A stretch of DNA of 20,870 nt, taken from a virus (lineage: Duplodnaviria; Heunggongvirae; Uroviricota; Caudoviricetes). Both the position numbers and the translations under genes were made by a program. Shown here piece after piece: positions 5,372 through 17,138 of this stretch (positions are counted from its first letter, which is position 1; each line of letters opens with the position of its first letter). The stretch is taken from IMG/VR virus record IMGVR_UViG_2896595138_000005, positions 1-20,870 of that record; one strand, given 5' to 3'. A model generated the notes under the pieces. The model was not told the DNA's origin, made no database searches, and saw only the letters and a program-made list of their open reading frames with translations.

Positions 5372-5643
5372 ATGCGAAACAAAGGCTTTAATCCACCTGA
5401 TACACACAAAGAAGCTAAGCGTTTGCGCTTCCTTCGTTCCATTGATGAAAGAACTCAAATCTCTTTTGTGAAAGTTGCCAGAACTGAGCTTCTGAAAGCT
5501 GAGGCGAGGGCGTTGCTCCCGCCTCTACCAAAAGAGGAGGGATATACGTTCATTCCAAACGCATTTCTGGAAAAGCTGCTCAAAGAAGACATATCCGTAA
5601 GTCAGTTTAACGATGTTCTTAAGGTCTTTCGTCAAGGCAGGTA
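5372..5643 (+). CDS. hypothetical protein between cII and the replication genes
   Basis: 90 aa from an internal ATG with a GAGG RBS, inside the longer ORF-track frame 5159..5644. Confidence 0.4.
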
Positions 5644-9200: not shown

Positions 9201-9509
9201 TTAAACGAAGCGGATCTGGAGTTTTTTTCCAGTAGCGCGGGCGAATTTTTTTAGTGTGGCAAATGATGGGCCGCTGATACCTGATGCGAGATTACTTTCC
9301 ATTCTGGTGATCGCGGTCGCTTTTGTTCCCATTCGCTCGGCAACTTCAGCCTGAGTTAAGCCAGCTTCTTTGCGTGCTGCCAGCATTTCATCAAGCAGTG
9401 CGAATTCGTCAGCGATAGCGTCGTATTCTGCTTTAAAAGCCGGGTCTTCCATCCATTTGGCTGCCATTTCGTCGTGTGTCATGGTGGGGAGAGTGCGTTT
9501 ACCAGTCAT
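9201..9509 (-). CDS. HigA-like HTH antitoxin (XRE family)
   Basis: HTH segment LTQAEVAERMGTKATAITRME; sits downstream of and overlaps the toxin gene. Confidence 0.7.
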   Translation of the reverse strand: MTGKRTLPTMTHDEMAAKWMEDPAFKAEYDAIADEFALLDEMLAARKEAGLTQAEVAERMGTKATAITRMESNLASGISGPSFATLKKFARATGKKLQIRFV

Positions 9510-9828
9510 GCTTAACCTCCTTCATTCTGGTTTCAGCTTTCTTGCGTTCGGCTGGCGGTGTTTTCTGCGTTTTCTTTACAAAACTATGCAGCATGATGAT
9601 GCGTTTCCCTGTCAGAGTGCAGTAAAAAACACGCGCGATCCCATCGTTGCCTTTAATTCTGAGTTCGAAAAGTCCGTCACCAAAGGCGCTGGTGTGAGGT
9701 TCTCCGAGATTGCTGCCATATATCTTCATACGTTCAACGAGATGTTGGTATCGGGCACGCATACTCAATGGAAGCCGATCGACTTCCAGCCTTACATCTT
9801 CACTGTAGTATTCGATAGTGTAGTTCAT
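9499..9828 (-). CDS. HigB/RelE-ParE family toxin (Gp49-like)
   Basis: Conserved C-terminal pattern LHSFVKKTQKTPPAERKKAETRMKE; start uncertain, the frame opens at 9918. Confidence 0.65.
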   Translation of the reverse strand: MNYTIEYYSEDVRLEVDRLPLSMRARYQHLVERMKIYGSNLGEPHTSAFGDGLFELRIKGNDGIARVFYCTLTGKRIIMLHSFVKKTQKTPPAERKKAETRMKEVKHDW

Positions 9829-9949
9829 AGGTATCAACATAACAAAATCGTTATATGCATTCAAGGCCTGTAGTTGACGACAACACATATCCGGGCTATA
9901 TTCCTCATACGCCAGCAAAATCTGGCGTCGGGATTGAGACCCCGGATGT

Positions 9950-10420
9950 TTACGGAGCGATATGAGACGCGCCCGCGTCTTTTTTCATATCGTTTGCACA
10001 GTCACATTCGCGATTTATGGTGGGCTGTGTGGGGGAGCCGAAACCGATAACCATTTCTTTGTTGAAGAGACAAAGCGAGCAGGCCAGTCCGATCGCGGTC
10101 CAACTGAGCCCCATTTCACGGGATTTTTCGGTAATACCATTCTCCCGATTGCTCCAGCGTTCCATAATCCAGTGGATCCACTCCTCCTGCTTAGGGAAGA
10201 GTAAAAACGGAATGGTCACCGGCAGGCCATAATCAATATTACGCGGGTCCGTTGTCATGCCCCAGCCGATAATGAACTGAGCCGGGTTGGTACGGTAAAA
10301 CTGTTTTAGTGCAGGCAATATTTCAGGATTCTGGCGAATGCGCTGTAGGCGTTCCATCCGCCATTCAAAAACCATCTGGTAATCAGGATGTTTAAAATCG
10401 AAGGGGAATGGTAACGGCAT
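9950..10420 (-). pseudogene. terminase large subunit, N-terminal fragment only
   Basis: Directly follows terS; only 156 codons where several hundred are expected; no portal, head or tail genes follow. Confidence 0.6.
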
Positions 10421-10422
10421 AC

Positions 10423-10977
10423 TTAGCCCATCATTTTTCTATACACCTCTGCGGCCTGCTCAGGCGTTAATTTGGTAATTTCTGTTCTGACTGGTCCTCC
10501 GTCAGCGCCAGTCACTTCATTTTTGACGTTGTCTTTAAACGCCTGAACAGAAACATGACGCCCAAGCAACTCAAGGTTTTTAACCTTATCAGGCCATTTG
10601 ATTTTCTTCAGAAGTGCGGCGCTATCTGCGGATACCATCTCCACGACATCCATTCCTGATAGCGTTGTGCGCCATACCTTAGGCCAGTCTTTAATGGGCT
10701 TTAGCTCACCGTTTTGCAGGAGAATGTCGAGCACATCCATCTGGTCGATTTCAACCAATCTACGAAGAACATAGGCGGCATCTATACCCGTCTGCTCAAC
10801 GCGGGCGGATTTAAGTTCAGCAACGAATTTTTGAACATTAACATTTGCTAATAATCGAGATGCCTGCTCATTGGCGGTCTTCTCGCTGTAGCCCGCCCTG
10901 ATAGCTGCCTGTGTGCCGTTCAGATCTTTCAGGTACTCACGGGCAAACAGCTCTTGTTTGTCGGTGAGCTTTGCCAT
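10423..10977 (-). CDS. terminase small subunit (P27 family)
   Basis: N-terminus [35 protein letters not shown] is the family signature. Confidence 0.8.
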
Positions 10978-11078
10978 TATTTGTGCTCCGTTTATCCGTT
11001 AAAAGGGATATCAGTTAAGTTATCCCGTGTAGGGTATAAGCCATTATCAAGCCCACCAGTAGATGGGCTTTGTAATGG

Positions 11079-11336
11079 CTACTTCGCTTTTGCTTCCGCT
11101 CGCTTACGCCGGCGCTCTTCTTTCCTCTCGGCTTTTGCCATGTCCATGAATGTCTGCATGATCGAGTTCCGCATCATGTAGCTAACAAAGTGATGATTGA
11201 CACAGCCGTTGAGGCGCAGCTGCTCGCCAAACTCATCCACCGAGGCCAATGCTTCCATCATGCCCTTCTCGCCTTTCATGAACTCTGAGAAGTCGCGCCC
11301 CGCTCTGGAGGCGCATTCAATGACACGATCACTCAT
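11079..11336 (-). CDS. hypothetical protein with basic C-terminal tail
   Basis: 85 aa ending KAERKEERRRKRAEAKAK; start overlaps the stop of the KilA-N gene (ATGA). Confidence 0.45.
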   Translation of the reverse strand: MSDRVIECASRAGRDFSEFMKGEKGMMEALASVDEFGEQLRLNGCVNHHFVSYMMRNSIMQTFMDMAKAERKEERRRKRAEAKAK

Positions 11337-11830
11337 CCCGGAAGCCCGGGGATCGTTATCTGCAGCTGGTTAGCCAGGGAGTTAATCTCAGCGACCAACA
11401 CTGGCTTCGTATAGCGCCATGCCGCCAGCCCTTGTCCACAGAAGCTCGCCATATCTTTTTTCTGATCAAACTCATGACACTTCATATTGAGCTGCGCACT
11501 TAAGCTGTTGCGATGCTGAAGTTCTCCGGTGAAGTAGTCATCCAGGACTTTATAGGCTGCATATTTAAATCCGGGGTTTAGCCATGCTGCATAATCATAA
11601 GCAACAAACTTCCCGCCATATGTTCCACCGTGTACACCGCGCTCAGTAAAAACCACAGATTCGTGGTTTTTCTCCAGCTCGGCTAAGAACTCTTTGGTCT
11701 GCTTGTTTCGCAGGTAGTGGTACGGAGATTCAGATTCACTTTTACCACTGGCTTTCCACATATCAGTGAGGCAGATCATTCCTGATTCATCAACACGGAT
11801 CGGTGTATTAAAAAGCGTGATTGCTTTCAT
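11333..11830 (-). CDS. KilA-N domain protein
   Basis: N-terminal KilA-N-like segment (ITLFNTPIRVDESGMICLTDMWKASGK). Confidence 0.6.
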   Translation of the reverse strand: MKAITLFNTPIRVDESGMICLTDMWKASGKSESESPYHYLRNKQTKEFLAELEKNHESVVFTERGVHGGTYGGKFVAYDYAAWLNPGFKYAAYKVLDDYFTGELQHRNSLSAQLNMKCHEFDQKKDMASFCGQGLAAWRYTKPVLVAEINSLANQLQITIPGLPG

Positions 11831-11977
11831 GGCGTCTTTACCTTTTAGAAAGATGAGCCTGTTCGCACAGAAAAGCCGTCCCCGAGATGGTCGCCACCAT
11901 ATACGGCAATTCTCAGGCTCAGCTTTCTGAAAGACTCGGGGTTTATATGCGCTGCGATGCGCGGTTTACTGCGGACA

Positions 11978-12003
11978 TATAAAAGCCCCGCAAGTGCGAG
12001 GCT
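11978..12003 (-). terminator. candidate rho-independent terminator after Rz
   Basis: GC-rich imperfect stem (AGCCTCGCA / TGCGGGGCT) followed by TTTTAT on the minus strand. Confidence 0.35.
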
Positions 12004-12035
12004 CATTAAATGGACTTTGTGATTTGCAAAAAAAT

Positions 12036-12503
12036 TTATTTCAGGCACTGAGTCCTGATGTACTCCTGAAGCATTCTCAATGCTGTCTGGTCGCTGATGA
12101 TTCCGTCCCGGATACCGAGAACGTTTCGTCCAGCAACTGGAGAGAGTTCGACGGTGGCATCATTGCCCATGCCGGAGGCGCTGGAGGTTTCGGCTGAGGA
12201 TGGCACAGGGCATTTTCCTTTGACGAGCACCCGACCACCATTATCAAGCTTGCGCCGAAGAGCATCATTTTCAGCTTTCGCATTGGCTAACTCCTTCGTG
12301 TATTTAGCATCGAGTGCATCAGCAGCACGCTGGCGCTGCTGCATGTCAGTAATGGTTGCGTTCGCCAGCTTCAGTTCTCTTGCGTTTTTGTCGCGCTGCT
12401 CTTTGTAGGTAATGGCGTTATCACGGTAATGATTAACAGCCCATGACAGGCGGACGATGATGCAGATAACCAGAGCGGAGATAATCGCGGTGACTCTGCT
12501 CAT
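12036..12503 (-). CDS. Rz: Rz i-spanin
   Basis: N-terminus [17 protein letters not shown] with a transmembrane segment, then an [19 protein letters not shown] region. Confidence 0.75.
12077..12283 (-). CDS. Rz1: Rz1 o-spanin lipoprotein, embedded in Rz in another frame
   Basis: Lipobox VVGC after a signal peptide, then a proline-rich segment (PKPPAPPAW). Confidence 0.7.
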
Positions 12504-12996
12504 TGCTGCCCCACAAACAGACTTCACGCTCAATCTCACGACGGGTCATCAGCCCTTTCCATTGCTTACCGCCAGCATATGTCCAGCGACGTAGCTGGTC
12601 ACATGCGCCTTTGATATCGCCCTGGTTTATTTTGCGAAGAAGCGTCGATGTTCTGAAATTGCCAGCGCCCACGTTGTAAACGAACGAGTAAAGAGCGCCG
12701 CGCGTTGTTTCCGGTATATCGACTTTGATGTACGGGTTAATTTGTCTGGCGACAGTGGCAAGGTCTTTATTCAGGAGAGCTTTGCATTCTGCTTCGGTAT
12801 ACGTTTTACCAGGCATGATGTCTTTTCCGGTGTGTCCGTGACATACAGTCCATACACCAATGATATCTTTGTATGGTATGTAGCTGACACCTTCCAGACC
12901 ATCGTTACCACCTGGGCCAGTGATTAACACAGATGCTATAGCAACAGCCCCGCCACCAATAGCAACTGCAACAGCCTTGCGTAATGATGGCGACAT
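12433..12996 (-). CDS. R: SAR endolysin (phage 21 R-type lysozyme)
   Basis: N-terminal Gly/Ala-rich signal-anchor ([20 protein letters not shown]); start overlaps the holin stop (ATGA); 3' end overlaps the Rz start by about 70 bp. Confidence 0.8.
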
Positions 12997-13211
12997 TATT
13001 CACCTCTCGCAGCCTTACGCTTGTCTTCTCTTAATTTGAAATACAGATTCGTCAGATAAGTCAGAAGCCCCAGAAGCAGACTTCCCAGCACACCAATCGC
13101 AGCCCACTGTGATGGACTGACCTGATCCAACCACTGCAAAAACCAGTAGCCGGCACTGCCGGCGGAGGTGCCGTAGGCAATGCCCGTTGAAATTTTGTCC
13201 ATGGATTTCAT
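12996..13211 (-). CDS. S: class II holin (phage 21 S-type pinholin)
   Basis: Dual-start MKSMDK motif and two transmembrane segments; start at 13211 inside the longer ORF-track frame. Confidence 0.75.
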
Positions 13212-13327
13212 AGCCTCACCTCCGCAAATAACGGATGGCGTAGTTCTTATATTGGGAAGGGAAAAAAAAGGCCGCAGCGTAACTGTCACTGATGAATTCA
13301 GGATAGCCAGTGGCTACGGCTCAGTTA

Positions 13328-13403
13328 TGGTGCTGGTTAACGGACTTGAACCGCTACCCATTCGCTTACAAGGCGACTGCTCTACCATTAGAGCTAAACC
13401 AGC
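13328..13403 (-). tRNA. tRNA-like gene, anticodon UGU (Thr) by hand folding
   Basis: 76 nt with 7-bp acceptor stem, GCTC/GAGC D-stem, CTTGTAA anticodon loop, TTCAAGT T-loop and encoded CCA. Confidence 0.5.
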
Positions 13404-13408
13404 ATATT

Positions 13409-13483
13409 TGGCGGGACAGCGTGGACTCGAACCACGATAAGAAGGTTAACAGCCTTCCGTAATGACCTTTATACGACTGACCC
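13409..13483 (-). tRNA. tRNA-like gene, anticodon GUU (Asn) by hand folding
   Basis: 75 nt with perfect GAAGG/CCTTC anticodon stem, CTGTTAA loop, CGTGG-TTCGAGT-CCACG T-arm and encoded CCA; one mismatch each in acceptor and D stems. Confidence 0.45.
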
Positions 13484-13672
13484 AAATAAAAAATCCCGAA
13501 AGCAGGCTCTATTCCTATGTGCTCTCGAGTTTATGATGCGCATGTCAGTGCGCTTAGCGAAAAACGCCGTAAACCCTCGCCCGACAGGGCGGGGAGCAGT
13601 CACAACTTAAAGATGAGGTGGGTAAAAAACCGAAAGAATGTGAACGGATATAAACCTGCCATTCTTGAGTCA

Positions 13673-13701
13673 AATTTACCCAACTTTATTCAAAAAGTCA
13701 A
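13673..13701 (-). promoter_or_regulatory. late promoter pR' (lambda-like)
   Basis: Minus-strand TTGACT, 17-nt spacer, TAAATT, within TTGACTTTTTGAATAAAGTTGGGTAAATTTGACTCAA. Confidence 0.6.
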
Positions 13702-13743
13702 TATCATGCCGTTAAGATGTTGCCATCCATGGCAATCATGCCG

Positions 13744-14367
13744 CTAACGTGTGACCGCATTCAAAATGTTGTCTGCGATTGACTCTTCTTTGTGGCATTG
13801 CACCACCAGAGCGTCATACAGCGGCTTAACAGTGCGTGACCATGTGGGTTGGGTGAGGTTTGGGATTAGCATCGTTACAGCGCGATATGCTGCACTTGCT
13901 GGCATCCTTGAATAGCCGACACCTTTGCATCTTCCGCACTCTTTCTCGACAACTCTCCCCCACTGCTCTGTTTTGGCTATATCAACTGCCAGACCTGTTC
14001 CGTGGCAATCTCTGCATCTTGCGCCCGGCGTCGCGGCACTACGGCAATAATCCGCATAAGCGAATGTTGCGAGCACTTGCAGTACCTTTGCCTTAGTATT
14101 TCCTTCGAGCTTTGCCACACCACGGTATTTCCCCGATACCTTGTGTGCAAATTGCATCAGATAGTTGATAGCCTTTTGTTTGTCGTTCTGGCTGAGTTCA
14201 TGCTTACCGCAAAATGCAGCCATTCCGAATCCGGCTTGTGATTGCGCCATCCCCATAGCAGCCATCACATCAGTACCGGAAAGAGAGTCAGAAGCCGTAG
14301 CCCGTGGTGAGTCGCTCATCATCGGGCTTTTTAGCGAATGAAATTTAGCTACGCTTTCGAGTCTCAT
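13744..14367 (-). CDS. Q: late antiterminator Q (lambda Q type)
   Basis: 207 aa with a CxxC...CxxC zinc-binding motif (CRDCHGTG...CGRCKG); recalled as near-identical to lambda Q. Confidence 0.8.
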   Translation of the reverse strand: MRLESVAKFHSLKSPMMSDSPRATASDSLSGTDVMAAMGMAQSQAGFGMAAFCGKHELSQNDKQKAINYLMQFAHKVSGKYRGVAKLEGNTKAKVLQVLATFAYADYCRSAATPGARCRDCHGTGLAVDIAKTEQWGRVVEKECGRCKGVGYSRMPASAAYRAVTMLIPNLTQPTWSRTVKPLYDALVVQCHKEESIADNILNAVTR

Positions 14368-14552
14368 CGTCTTCCCCTCTTGCCCTGTTTGACCATCAGG
14401 ACGCCGTTAACTATTACGTGACGCTCGCCTTTGCTGTCTCGGTTGTACTTGAGCACTGTTCCTCTTGCGCAGGAAAGCATCCTCGCCACTTCGGTCTGAT
14501 TGCCTCGTGTCTGGATAAGAAGCTCTGGTATCGTTTGAATTGTGGCGTTCAT
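14364..14552 (-). CDS. ninH: NinH-like small DNA-binding protein
   Basis: Segment GNQTEVARMLSCARGTV resembles lambda NinH. Confidence 0.6.
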   Translation of the reverse strand: MNATIQTIPELLIQTRGNQTEVARMLSCARGTVLKYNRDSKGERHVIVNGVLMVKQGKRGRR

Positions 14553-14911
14553 ACGTTCTCCAGTTCGGTGATTTTTATTCCAAGCCTTCCGCCTGGTACT
14601 TTCACACCACGAATTACGCGAATGTCATCGAATTGCTCGTCGTCTTCCGCAAATCCGGCGTGGATAAGAGAGTCGAGTAGCCCCTTCAGGATGTTGTCGA
14701 GGTCGCGGCGGCGGGAGTCTGGAACGTCTGCGATGACTTTGATGCGGAGTCGTGCTTTGGTGAAAATATCTAACTTGAGTTGGCGGATGATTTGCTGAAC
14801 GTCTTTTCGGTATTTCTGGCCTTTATAGCTGATGTAGTATTGGCTTCCCCGTCTTCGCCAGTAGGTGTTCAGCGACGGTGGGTATGGAAGCACAAACTGA
14901 TATTCGTTCAT
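14549..14911 (-). CDS. rusA: RusA-family Holliday junction resolvase
   Basis: 120 aa with the RRRDLDN motif characteristic of RusA. Confidence 0.8.
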   Translation of the reverse strand: MNEYQFVLPYPPSLNTYWRRRGSQYYISYKGQKYRKDVQQIIRQLKLDIFTKARLRIKVIADVPDSRRRDLDNILKGLLDSLIHAGFAEDDEQFDDIRVIRGVKVPGGRLGIKITELENV

Positions 14912-15198
14912 GGCTTAATCTTCCCCTCCTTCAGCAGTATCGCCTGCGTCCTGATCACGCCTTCGAGGTGGTAAAGTCTGGCGTCTTTGTTGTCGAGGTT
15001 ATGGGTGCGTCGGTCGATTTCATCGTGACACGCGCTACAAGCCCATGCGCCGATCAGGTCGTCAGGCTTCATTCCCGTTCCGCAAATTCCAGCCATCCGG
15101 TAATGTGCCAGAACTGTAGTTTCAGGATTGCCATTGCATACGCCGTAAATACGTACCTGGCATTCTCTGCCGCGCGCTTCTTTGCGTAAGTTAGCCAT
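14908..15198 (-). CDS. YbcO-like protein (DUF1364)
   Basis: 96 aa, cysteine- and histidine-rich, immediately upstream of rusA as in DLP12. Confidence 0.55.
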   Translation of the reverse strand: MANLRKEARGRECQVRIYGVCNGNPETTVLAHYRMAGICGTGMKPDDLIGAWACSACHDEIDRRTHNLDNKDARLYHLEGVIRTQAILLKEGKIKP

Positions 15199-15926
15199 TA
15201 AGCAGCCTCCCCTGTTACTTTCAGCATTCCGTTATAGAGCAGCTTTCTGGTCAGCCACTGTTGGCCACGCCCGGTGATTTTTGTGGTGAACGATATCTGT
15301 ATTCCGTGATTTGTGTTGACTGCTGTTTCTTTCACTGTGAAATAGCCGCGATCCATATATTCCTGCATTGGCACATTGCGCCGGGAACCTGAAGCAATAA
15401 GGATTTTGTGATCGCGCATCCACGCAAACAGTTTGTTTGGACCAATTCCAACAACCTTTGCAAAGTTTCCAATCAAAATTCCGCTGGCCTCGCTAACGCG
15501 ATCGGCAAACTCAACTTTAGGTGCTGCGAGAGCAAGCTGTTTCTCCAGTTCAGCCTTCTGGTCTTCAAGGTCGGCCGCAAGGCGCAATGCCTCAGAAAAG
15601 GTTTGTGGGATTTTCGCGGTTGCCCCTTCAAGCTCTCGCCAACGGTCAACAAGACGAGCGGTGAATTCCGGCGACAACTGGGCAACGACAATAATGCTGT
15701 CGCGCTTACCTTGTTCGCCTTCGAAGACGTAATGCTCGTACTGAACATTGAACCCTAAGTTATTGATTCTTTCGGAAACCTCAAATTGAGGATGCCGGAT
15801 AACACCATTTTTAGCCAGCGTTTCGATGGTACGTTTCACATTGTCATGACGCTTACCCACCAACTCAGCGATTTCAATGCTGGTCATTTTGATGGCGTTG
15901 CTATTTATCAGCTCGTTCATTGTCAT
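15198..15926 (-). CDS. antirepressor (Rha-like N-terminus, KilAC-type C-terminus)
   Basis: N-terminal TSIEIAELVGKRHDNVKRTIETL; two-domain layout typical of phage Ant proteins. Confidence 0.65.
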   Translation of the reverse strand: MTMNELINSNAIKMTSIEIAELVGKRHDNVKRTIETLAKNGVIRHPQFEVSERINNLGFNVQYEHYVFEGEQGKRDSIIVVAQLSPEFTARLVDRWRELEGATAKIPQTFSEALRLAADLEDQKAELEKQLALAAPKVEFADRVSEASGILIGNFAKVVGIGPNKLFAWMRDHKILIASGSRRNVPMQEYMDRGYFTVKETAVNTNHGIQISFTTKITGRGQQWLTRKLLYNGMLKVTGEAA

Positions 15927-15951
15927 GTCCTCTCATATTGAAAATTCAGCA

Positions 15952-15975
15952 ATAAAAAACCCAGCCGAAGCTGGG
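15952..15975 (-). terminator. rho-independent terminator between the ORF6N gene and the antirepressor gene
   Basis: Minus-strand CCCAGC-TTCG-GCTGGG followed by TTTTTTATT. Confidence 0.55.
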
Positions 15976-15994
15976 TCGTTGCGTTGGCAATCTG

Positions 15995-16672
15995 TCAGTA
16001 GTGATGTAGTGAAGGAGGTAATTCTTTGTTCTTAAGTCTTACCCATGCAGAAAGATTCGTTGGTCCGTCTGGCTCATTAATATCAACATCTCGTGTGTGA
16101 TTGATTAAAACGTCTCTCGCCATTCCGATAACATACGAGAACTCATGACCGTAGTCGTGGCATCTGCCGGAATAGTTAGACTGAATTTGTCTTAGCGCCG
16201 GATACAGTTCGCGGAATAATGCCTGTGAGCGGTTGGCATAATCCCACAACCATACCAGACTGTTTGCATCTTTTGCAGAAAGCTCGCTGGTTTTCTTCTC
16301 GTGATGACCTGCGCTTTTCGAAGTCTGGCTGAAATAGCAGTCTTCCAGTTTTTCGAACACGTCCCATGCCTGATCGGTTTCGAGCATCTTCGCGTGACGG
16401 GCTGCGCCTCGTTCTGTCCAGAGGATGAGCGAGCGGGCATTTTTACCAACTAACCCGATTGTTTCGGGTCTGTTCTTAAACTCGCGTAATTCGTTTTTTT
16501 CAATTTTAAAGTAATGCTTTCCTACCACGAATCGCATCGTGTTGTTCAGAAAATTATCAGAAATGTTTTTGATTTTTGTTCCGTATAACTGCGCCAGAAG
16601 TTCAGTTGTAATAACGGGGATCTGGTTGTGGGTGATTGCAGGAAGAGTGTCGACAGAAATTTGAGTGAGCAT
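15995..16672 (-). CDS. ORF6N-domain phage protein
   Basis: Start assigned to MLTQ (GGAG RBS 8 nt upstream); the longer ORF-track frame runs into the IS; the IS left end lies about 65 bp upstream of the assigned start. Confidence 0.5.
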
Positions 16673-16800
16673 AACGATAACTCCGTACATTTGGTCATTA
16701 TCGCCACCTTCTGGTCTCAATAATCTGGTGGCGAGCTGAGGTAGCCTGAGTTTAACGGACACTCCTTCCTGAAATAGAATGGCATCAGAAGGAGCTAATA

Positions 16801-17103
16801 ATGAGCAGAAAAACCCAACGTTACTCTAAAGAGTTCAAAGCCGAAGCTGTCAGAACGGTTCTTGAAAATCAACTTTCGATCAGTGAAGGCGCTTCCCGAT
16901 TATCCCTTCCTGAAGGCACTTTAGGACAATGGGTTACCGCCGCCAGAAAAGAGCTCGGTACTCCTGGTTCCCGCACGGTGGCTGAACTGGAATCTGAAAT
17001 TCTGCAACTGCGTAAGGCGTTAAATGAAGCTCGCCTTGAGCGAGATATATTAAAAAAAGCAACAGCGTATTTTGCACAGGAGTCGCTGAAAAATACGCGT
17101 TAA
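16801..17103 (+). CDS. IS3-family transposase OrfA (HTH, leucine zipper)
   Basis: 100 aa; the A7G frameshift site lies near its 3' end. Confidence 0.85.
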
Positions 17104-17138
17104 TCGAACAATGGCGACAACAATTTCCCATTGAAGCG

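Follow-up and report, generated by a model that had tools for sequence, protein, structure and literature searches.

Background

Tandem genes for the tRNAs Asn(GUU) and Thr(UGU) downstream of the late antiterminator gene Q have been reported in the phages SfI, Sf6, ST64T, PS3 and p21 (PMC3636060, the SfI genome paper). The same pair occurs in the sequence studied here, a stretch of 20,870 nucleotides from a virus of the Caudoviricetes (IMG/VR record IMGVR_UViG_2896595138_000005, positions 1 to 20,870; hereafter the window), between the late promoter pR' and the holin gene of a rearranged prophage remnant. As the pair has already been annotated and published in phage 21/Sf6-like phages, the element itself is already known; judged by its sequence, the window carries a known cassette of the phage 21 type, here in a new module combination within a decayed prophage. 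The main role of the pair is probably to replace host tRNAs that are destroyed by anti-phage tRNA nucleases during lambdoid lytic growth.

One of these nucleases is Old of phage P2, for which all statements here and below are taken from a single report (PMC12445682). Old is the effector of P2-lambda interference, and kills by cutting host tRNA-Thr(UGU), the low-abundance product of the single-copy gene thrU. The cuts fall in paired CNG motifs of the anticodon stem, at nt 28–30 and 40–42. Host tRNA-Asn(GUU) is also cut, more slowly than ThrU. Phage genes for tRNA-Thr(UGU) rescue cells from Old, whereas additional copies of host tRNA-ThrU give little or no protection. The tRNA-Thr of phage 21 (Thr21) was among those tested in 2025 and was protective; it is functional in decoding ACA, and its resistance maps to the anticodon arm, where both an alteration of the CNG motif (C28U/G42A) and a shortened stem are required.

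A second nuclease with overlapping targets is AriB of the PARIS system, which cuts the tRNAs for Lys (anticodon UUU), Thr (UGU) and Asn (GUU) between nt 40 and 41, beside the sequence U36-A-A-U39. A change of U39 abolishes cleavage, and the Lys, Thr and Asn tRNA variants of phage T5 rescue jointly (PMC12409363). HepS of Gifsy-1 also targets Thr tRNAs (PMC13043305).

Two tRNA genes of the phage 21 type

Across the whole 20.9-kb window ARAGORN identified only two tRNA genes:

13409..13483, minus strand: tRNA-Asn (anticodon GUU), 75 nt; ARAGORN call, Rfam 55.3 bits; encoded CCA, discriminator G73
13328..13403, minus strand: tRNA-Thr (anticodon UGU), 76 nt; ARAGORN call, Rfam 63.2 bits; encoded CCA, discriminator A73

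Both are also recognized by Rfam family RF00005 (E 7e-12 for tRNA-Thr and 1e-9 for tRNA-Asn; gathering score 29). Host tRNAs scored in the same way gave 73.8 bits (thrU), 72.6 (asnT), 64.9 (glyT) and 53.4 (tyrU), with an overall range of 53–75, and both window tRNAs score inside this range of genuine tRNAs. An initial annotation, made from the sequence alone, had placed two tRNA-like genes at these coordinates with hand-folded anticodons UGU and GUU, 5 nt apart and both with an encoded CCA. All of this agrees with the ARAGORN calls and the sequence: the spacer is AATAT (13408..13404), and the 3' ends are G73-CCA in tRNA-Asn and A73-CCA in tRNA-Thr. That annotation left the strand unstated; both genes lie on the minus strand, inside the rearranged prophage remnant. 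It had also noted stem mismatches in one of the two tRNAs; such mismatches exist, but they are found in both, as U4.U69 and U13.U22 in tRNA-Asn and as G27.A43 in tRNA-Thr.

The anticodon loops are 7 nt long (CUGUUAA in tRNA-Asn, CUUGUAA in tRNA-Thr), each with U33 and a purine at position 37, and the T-arms of the pair, GGTTCGAGTCC and GGTTCAAGTCC, contain the GTTCRA T-loop sequence. The elements that we take to determine Asn identity (G34U35U36 and G73) are present in the tRNA-Asn sequence, and those that we take to determine Thr identity (G1-C72, C2-G71, G35 and U36) in that of tRNA-Thr. Compared with the window, the tRNA-Asn of Klebsiella phage Mulock has paired changes at 6:67 (A-U to G-C), 7:66 (G-C to A-U) and 28:42 (A-U to C-G), and its tRNA-Thr at 3:70 and 6:67 (both U-A to C-G); the Mulock tRNA-Asn keeps U4.U69 despite its compensatory stem changes. 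These double substitutions in acceptor and anticodon stems, in a comparison that comprises few diverged sequences, indicate that the cloverleaf fold is under selection. A reading of the two genes as pseudogenes or products of decay was rejected for this locus, given their scores within the range of host tRNAs and given that the mismatch in the stem of tRNA-Thr is a functional feature of Thr21; ARAGORN called both as tRNAs. Two plus-strand open reading frames (ORFs) that overlap the tRNAs (13180–13440 and 13310–13462) were treated as spurious.

Conservation of the pair in relatives, the lack of which was part of the refuting condition in the initial annotation, is extensive. The 156-nt pair is 97–99.5% identical to annotated tRNA-Asn/tRNA-Thr genes of phages 21, Sf6, SfI, BTP1, SPN9CC, HK446, mEp506 and Kapi1, with 98.7% identity over 156 nt to phages 21 and Sf6. 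The tRNA-Asn is identical to the copies of phage 21, Sf6, JLK-2012, Salmonella phage L and E. albertii. The tRNA-Thr matches that of phages 21 and Sf6 in 75 of 76 positions, the sole difference being a C to U change at D-loop position 14, and the anticodon arm is identical. This U14 allele is rare; it is shared by a prophage of FDAARGOS_943, which is 100% identical over the pair. Among 5426 complete E. coli genomes the pair was found in 347–369 (about 6%), and it also occurs in E. albertii, Escherichia sp. E1V33, Shimwellia pseudoproteus and two gut metagenome-assembled genome (MAG) bins. The last are exact copies on short contigs in bins labelled Segatella copri (L013) and Collinsella sp. (L016), which are most likely mis-binned phage contigs.

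Some relatives have a different second tRNA. In JLK-2012 (L020, 1281–1356) and E. albertii (L015, about 5553–5628) it is a chimera for which ARAGORN makes no call; its 5' half corresponds to phage tRNA-Thr and its 3' part is host thrU-like, with positions 42–43 changed, so that the chimera has a 3-bp anticodon stem and no CNG on the 3' strand. A tRNA-Gly(UCC) comes after it; JLK-2012 then also has tciA/tciB, like P1. In Salmonella phage L (L021, 1281–1352) the second tRNA, annotated as tRNA-Leu(TAA), likewise escapes an ARAGORN call; compared with tRNA-Thr, its anticodon arm is short of 4 nt through a deletion, and it is probably a pseudo-tRNA, a contrasting case of real decay.

Loss of nuclease recognition motifs from the anticodon arms

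The anticodon arms of the window tRNAs and their host counterparts compare as follows (arm; CNG motifs; nt 36–41; stem length):

Host thrU: ACUGA-CUUGUAA-UCAGU; paired CNG (CUG/CAG); UAAUCA; 5 bp
Window and phage 21 tRNA-Thr: GUCGC-CUUGUAA-GCGAA; no CNG (UCG/CGA); UAAGCG; 4 bp (G27.A43)
Host asnT: GCGGA-CUGUUAA-UCCGU; paired CNG (CGG/CCG); UAAUCC; 5 bp
Window tRNA-Asn: GAAGG-CUGUUAA-CCUUC; no CNG (AAG/CUU); UAACCU; 5 bp

The arm of the window tRNA-Thr is thus that of Thr21, which like Thr6 is one of the nuclease-resistant phage tRNA-Thr(UGU) that suppress Old toxicity (PMC12445682), with anticodon UGU, C28U/G42A and a stem shortened to 4 bp by G27.A43, and with CNG on neither strand. Since the G27.A43 mismatch is part of the Thr21 resistance feature set, it does not represent decay. 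Differences from Thr21 as assayed are the one D-loop base and the setting of expression, from a late operon in the window versus a constitutive plasmid promoter in the assay. By analogy, the U14 allele of the window would be expected to behave like Thr21. Both window tRNAs have, in addition, lost the U36-A-A-U39 sequence beside which AriB cuts. For tRNA-Asn the arm suggests a similar role as a nuclease-resistant replacement, because host tRNA-Asn has both the Old (CNG) and the AriB (UAAU) motifs and phage tRNA-Asn has neither. A resistant tRNA-Lys(UUU), corresponding to the prime target of AriB, is lacking, as neither window tRNA is a tRNA-Lys; the annotations of phages 21 and Sf6 at this locus likewise comprise Asn and Thr alone.

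On this basis the following course of events may be envisaged. Being located within the pR' late transcript, downstream of the terminator tR', the pair would be made upon antitermination by Q, and host tRNA-processing enzymes would cut both tRNAs out of the transcript. The phage tRNA-Thr, escaping Old because its CNG motifs are absent and its stem is shortened, would survive and restore ACA decoding, as expected from the near-identical tRNA-Thr of phage 21. Added ACA decoding capacity would be a secondary benefit, given that ACA is 2–3 times commoner in lambdoid than in host genes.

Comparison with other named systems

The nearest described systems are the pairs of phages 21, Sf6 and SfI (OL657228, AF547987 and JX509734). 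Their spacer is also 5 nt long (with one base different), and the pair likewise follows the tR' U-tract immediately and precedes the holin, with a shared ACTGAGCCGTAGCC hairpin flank; the S21 holin of phage 21 is also shared with the window. In contrast, Q, pR' and the Q-utilization site qut of the window are of the lambda type and not of the Q21 type, an IS200/IS605-like hairpin is inserted in the window leader, tR' is weakened, position 14 of tRNA-Thr is U and not C, and the setting is a prophage remnant.

A tandem with the same Asn-5nt-Thr order and the same anticodons is present in P7 (L023, 1425–1578; P1/P7, AF503408), with a tRNA-Thr that is 81% identical. As P7 is an unrelated P1-like phage, the arrangement crosses phage families. 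The P7 pair is located under the C1-controlled early lytic operator Op(ban), upstream of tciA/ban, unlike the window pair in its Q-dependent late leader. Phage T5 (PMC11464382, PMC12409363) shares the Thr(UGU) and Asn(GUU) isoacceptors, and the T5 copies and the window pair are alike in having substitutions at U39 and position 41 and in lacking CNG motifs; with low identities (51/78 and 48/79 aligned positions), the two sets are not closely related. The virulent T5 carries more than 20 tRNAs, compared with a two-tRNA cassette of a temperate phage, lacking a tRNA-Lys(UUU) partner, in the window.

The initial annotation had pointed out that Shiga toxin (Stx) phages carry ileZ-argN-argO and stx at the equivalent place, and that their tRNA set is different. 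The map of phage 933W (NC_000924) bears out this layout: the order is Q, pR', qut, terminators, pT, ileZ-argN-argO, stx2AB, further genes and S, so that the tRNAs occupy the same slot, after Q/pR'/qut/terminators and before the lysis genes. The sets differ indeed (GUU/UGU versus Ile, Arg, Arg). Moreover, 933W has its own annotated tRNA promoter pT and stx2AB with further cargo, whereas the window has no second promoter-like site or cargo; none of the features of the Stx cluster (Ile/Arg/Arg, pT, adjacent stx) is found in it. A tRNA promoter comparable to pT was ruled out, as a promoter scan of 12900–14500 gave pR' as the sole promoter-like site.

The late block and the mosaic structure of the leader

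On the minus strand the gene order is Q (14367..13744), a 260-nt leader, tRNA-Asn, tRNA-Thr, 116 nt, holin (13211..12996), lysozyme and Rz. The following features surround the pair:

13744..14367, minus strand: lambda-type Q, the late antiterminator, of 207 aa (Pfam PF03589, Antiterm; E 3e-57)
13673..13701, minus strand: late promoter pR', TTGACT-17-TAAATT, with a lambda-type Q-binding element in the spacer; aligns base for base with lambda pR'/qut
13503..13664, minus strand: late-transcript leader, 5' remnant of an HNH-endonuclease cassette broken by a 46-nt insert (match to E. coli sequence L007)
13558..13603, minus strand: 46-nt insert with GC hairpin CCCGCCCUGUCGGGCGAGGG and U-rich tail; absent from L007, hairpin seen in the fold
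13484..13529, minus strand: tR' remnant, a substitute hairpin (13529–13495) followed by AUUUUUUAUUU (13494–13484); the U-tract is the left cassette boundary
13262..13320, minus strand: terminator-like hairpin (13320–13271) followed by C and U8 (13270–13262); closes the tRNA cassette, conserved right flank
12996..13211, minus strand: class II (pin)holin of the S21 type, dual start MKSM (Pfam PF04971, E 6e-35)
12499–12996, minus strand: lysozyme of the SAR endolysin type (Pfam PF00959), collinear with rrrD of prophage L008
12036–12503, minus strand: Rz spanin (Pfam PF03245), collinear with the lysis protein of prophage L008

No ORF with a toxin-like or any other Pfam match is present in the interval from Q to the holin, and the holin begins 116 nt after tRNA-Thr, in line with the earlier proposal of a cargo-free position between pR' and the holin. 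A plus-strand ORF at 13517–13747 also has no Pfam match and was treated as spurious. A stretch of 302 nt (13493–13192), reaching into the holin gene, is 95% identical to phage 21, where the holin counterpart is annotated as antiholin/holin S21-71/68.

The Q/pR'/qut region has 96.2% nucleotide identity to lambda 43886–44594. Transcription from pR' presumably starts at about 13666, as in lambda, and pR' is followed by a sigma-dependent pause-like element, AAGAAT, at about 13666–13661. Lambda homology stops at 13665, and the next approximately 160 nt are not lambda 6S RNA; this origin of the leader was therefore ruled out, and a search for the leader in phages yielded fragments only. Window positions 13800–13604 and 13557–13503 instead match L007 2101–2351. 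The L007 leader type is found in E. coli prophages that have an HNH endonuclease coding sequence between pR' and tRNA-Asn. The window lacks L007 2352–3092, and with these 741 nt of the HNH cassette also the tR' 5' arm. The complete window-type leader occurs in just two of the 5426 E. coli genomes. By these alignments the window leader (182 nt) is a deletion derivative of a lambda-type leader that carried the HNH cassette. The cassette itself, at L007 2226–2921 (E. coli AH21A060), is found in at least 17 other E. coli genomes as well; beside the tRNAs, it interrupts the lambda-type 6S leader, with pR' on one side and tR' on the other, and in this variant tR' has its central loop inverted.

Copies of the 46-nt insert with about 91% identity occur, one each, in about 367 E. 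coli genomes, and one of them is located 33 nt beyond tnpA of ISEc46 (IS200/IS605-like). The insert is probably a solo end of an IS200/IS605-family element, and it might terminate transcription from pR'.

The window tR' lacks the 5' arm of its lambda counterpart and has a 7-nt deletion in the 3' arm, with a fold energy of -13.5 kcal/mol compared to -28.3 in lambda and -20.2 in phage 21. The hairpin after the tRNAs has a fold energy of -23.4 kcal/mol (z -4.05; 0 of 200 shuffles as stable), and a terminator scan flags the same site; it is kept in phage 21, and is 91% identical in lambda, where the U run is shorter. The tRNAs are thus bracketed by two terminator-like structures, one on the tR' side and the hairpin-U8 on the other.

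Alignment of the flanks of the window, lambda, mEp506, Kapi1, phage 21 and Sf6 placed the left border of the cassette at the tR' U-tract, TTTTTTAT, and the right border at ACTGAGCCGTAGCCACTG. The tR' T-tract is common to the window, lambda, phage 21 and Sf6. Lambda has both flanks, with about 160 nt of unrelated DNA filling the same slot. Five different Q/holin module combinations accompany the pair:

Q21 and S21: phage 21
Q21 and S-lambda: Sf6
Q-lambda and S-lambda: mEp506, Kapi1
Q-lambda, HNH endonuclease and S-lambda: L007
Q-lambda and S21: window, FDAARGOS_943

State of the prophage remnant

The local state of the prophage was assessed by Pfam annotation and by BLAST against prophage L008, which is collinear. 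On the plus strand, up to about 10043, is the early region, with N, cI, cro, cII, O, a dnaB-like gene, ninB and dam-ninE. The block from about 10044 to 16736, comprising a P22AR-like gene, Q, the tRNAs, the lysis genes and terS, is inverted relative to this early operon and truncated after terS; no structural genes are left in the remnant. IS600 copies are present at 1–863 and 16737–18000, and share 863 bp (17139–18001) that are 100% identical and in direct orientation. An integrase gene (18253–19200) and an IS66 transposase lie beyond IS600. The content of IS600 and IS66 may point to Shigella or a closely related E. coli as the source; among the five species representatives obtained with the spacer pattern, none had a context like that of the window. 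The inversion of the late block disconnects Q from pR, and the location of the cassette in a rearranged remnant makes its current expression uncertain; judged from the sequence, expression here would depend on read-through of the weakened terminators from pR'.

Two other features were observed near the breakpoint. A homologue of isrK, an Hfq-binding small RNA of Gifsy-1, is found at 9909–9985 on the plus strand (Rfam 70.6 bits), about 60 nt ahead of the breakpoint (at about 10043). In L008 the isrK homologue precedes a P22AR/ORF6N antirepressor-like gene, and in the window the inversion separates the two. In the nin region, at 9201–9918 on the minus strand, a helix-turn-helix protein gene (9201–9509) adjoins an ORF at the position of a RelE/ParE-family toxin of L008, and the two ORFs appear to be a prophage-borne toxin-antitoxin pair.

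Possible roles of the pair

Several points weigh against a main role in replacing cleaved host tRNAs. The window tRNA-Thr has U14 where the phage 21 allele that was assayed has C14, and the rescue by Thr21 was partial (small colonies) and obtained from a constitutive plasmid promoter (PMC12445682). The phage tRNAs are late products, whereas the early Gam protein triggers Old. With no tRNA-Lys(UUU) in the window, the pair alone should not neutralise PARIS of B185, of which tRNA-Lys is the prime target. Nor is the sequence signature universal: P7 tRNA-Thr keeps a paired CNG, P7 tRNA-Asn keeps UAAUCA, and Mulock tRNA-Asn has a paired CNG. The retention of CNG (Thr) and UAAU (Asn) in the P7 arms implies that the resistance signature is lineage-specific. 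Finally, the late block, inverted with respect to pR, is cut short after terS and has IS600 at its border; no structural genes are left to translate, and expression of Q at this locus may have been lost.

These last features lead to a possible alternative, to which we give somewhat less than even weight, that the pair is at this locus an inert relic, with Q cut off from pR and the tRNAs not meaningfully expressed, and too young to have decayed. The inversion and truncation relative to L008, the flanking IS600, integrase and IS66, the origin of the leader by deletion with an IS-end insert, and the rare U14 allele shared with the FDAARGOS_943 prophage are all consistent with it. Against it, Q and pR' are intact, along with the Q-binding and pause elements, and so are both tRNAs, with scores like those of functional tRNAs. 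Moreover, pR' is constitutive in lambda, and since tR' is weakened and the tRNAs are followed by the hairpin-U8, Q-independent read-through could yield a short tRNA transcript. That the tRNA genes serve mainly as substrates for recombination or integration, providing homology for module exchange or an att site and not a function in translation, appears highly improbable. Mosaic joints are indeed found exactly at the cassette borders, with five Q/holin combinations; a chimeric tRNA, part phage tRNA-Thr and part host thrU, is present in JLK-2012 and E. albertii; and HNH and IS-end insertions cluster in the neighbouring leader. The joints, however, fall within flanking sequence (T-tract and ACTGAGCCGTAGCC hairpin) that lambda, though lacking the tRNAs, also has, compensatory substitutions keep the cloverleaf, Thr21 works in ACA decoding, and the window has no att-like duplicate of tRNA 3' ends, with ARAGORN calling the two genes alone.

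Pure codon supplementation, in which the tRNAs raise isoacceptor supply and speed late protein synthesis and defence plays no part, is an unlikely explanation of the pair as a whole. The initial annotation had suggested a comparison of codon usage between phage and host genes, and this gave a positive answer for ACA and a negative one for the Asn codons. Codon frequencies were calculated from annotated sets of coding sequences, the host being represented by a 14,748-codon E. coli sample. In this sample ACA occurs at 5.4 per thousand (10% of Thr codons), compared to 16.8 in late and 12.8 in early genes of Sf6, 11.0–14.3 in the FDAARGOS_943 prophage and 12–18 in the phage genes of the window; for SfI a value of 17.3 versus 7.1 in the host has been published (PMC3636060). 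The low abundance of the single-copy thrU product also fits a need for supply. On the other hand, lambda has no tRNAs and yet its early genes are equally rich in ACA (16.3 per thousand; late genes 8.1), and the Asn codons, at 30–48 per thousand in the phage sets and 38 in the host, show no excess demand. The SfI paper equally saw no Asn bias and called the role of tRNA-Asn unclear (PMC3636060). Extra host tRNA-ThrU, moreover, protected little or not at all from Old, in contrast to phage tRNA-Thr, and supplementation leaves unexplained why both tRNAs have lost exactly the nuclease recognition motifs. As the demand for ACA is shared by lambda without tRNAs and a demand for Asn codons is not seen, supplementation is plausibly a secondary benefit, of tRNA-Thr only.

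Replacement of nuclease-cleaved host tRNAs therefore remains the preferred reading of the main role. It can be extended, more speculatively, to the cassette as a whole: a two-tRNA countermeasure to Toprim/OLD-family nucleases (P2 Old, PARIS AriB and relatives), with tRNA-Asn as a cleavage-resistant replacement, in which at this locus the constitutive pR' could come to drive a tRNA mini-operon independent of Q, owing to the weakening of tR' and the strong terminator that follows the tRNAs, with the host gaining partial immunity to tRNase toxins or to nucleases of this kind. We propose this combined reading tentatively, and consider it less probable than not.

Implications

The pair adds no new kind of element, being a textbook-level annotation for phage 21/Sf6-like phages. 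Its Thr member, in the form carried by phage 21, is a proven anti-defence replacement tRNA in classic P2-lambda interference, and provides an example of the purpose that a tRNA in a late leader can have. For the partner tRNA-Asn, whose role has at least since 2013 been described as unclear, the anticodon arm leads to the testable prediction that it is a second nuclease-resistant replacement. The spread of the pair over about 6% of complete E. coli genomes, several Q/holin types and P1-like phages suggests that tRNA-targeting defences commonly exert pressure on the temperate phages of enterobacteria.

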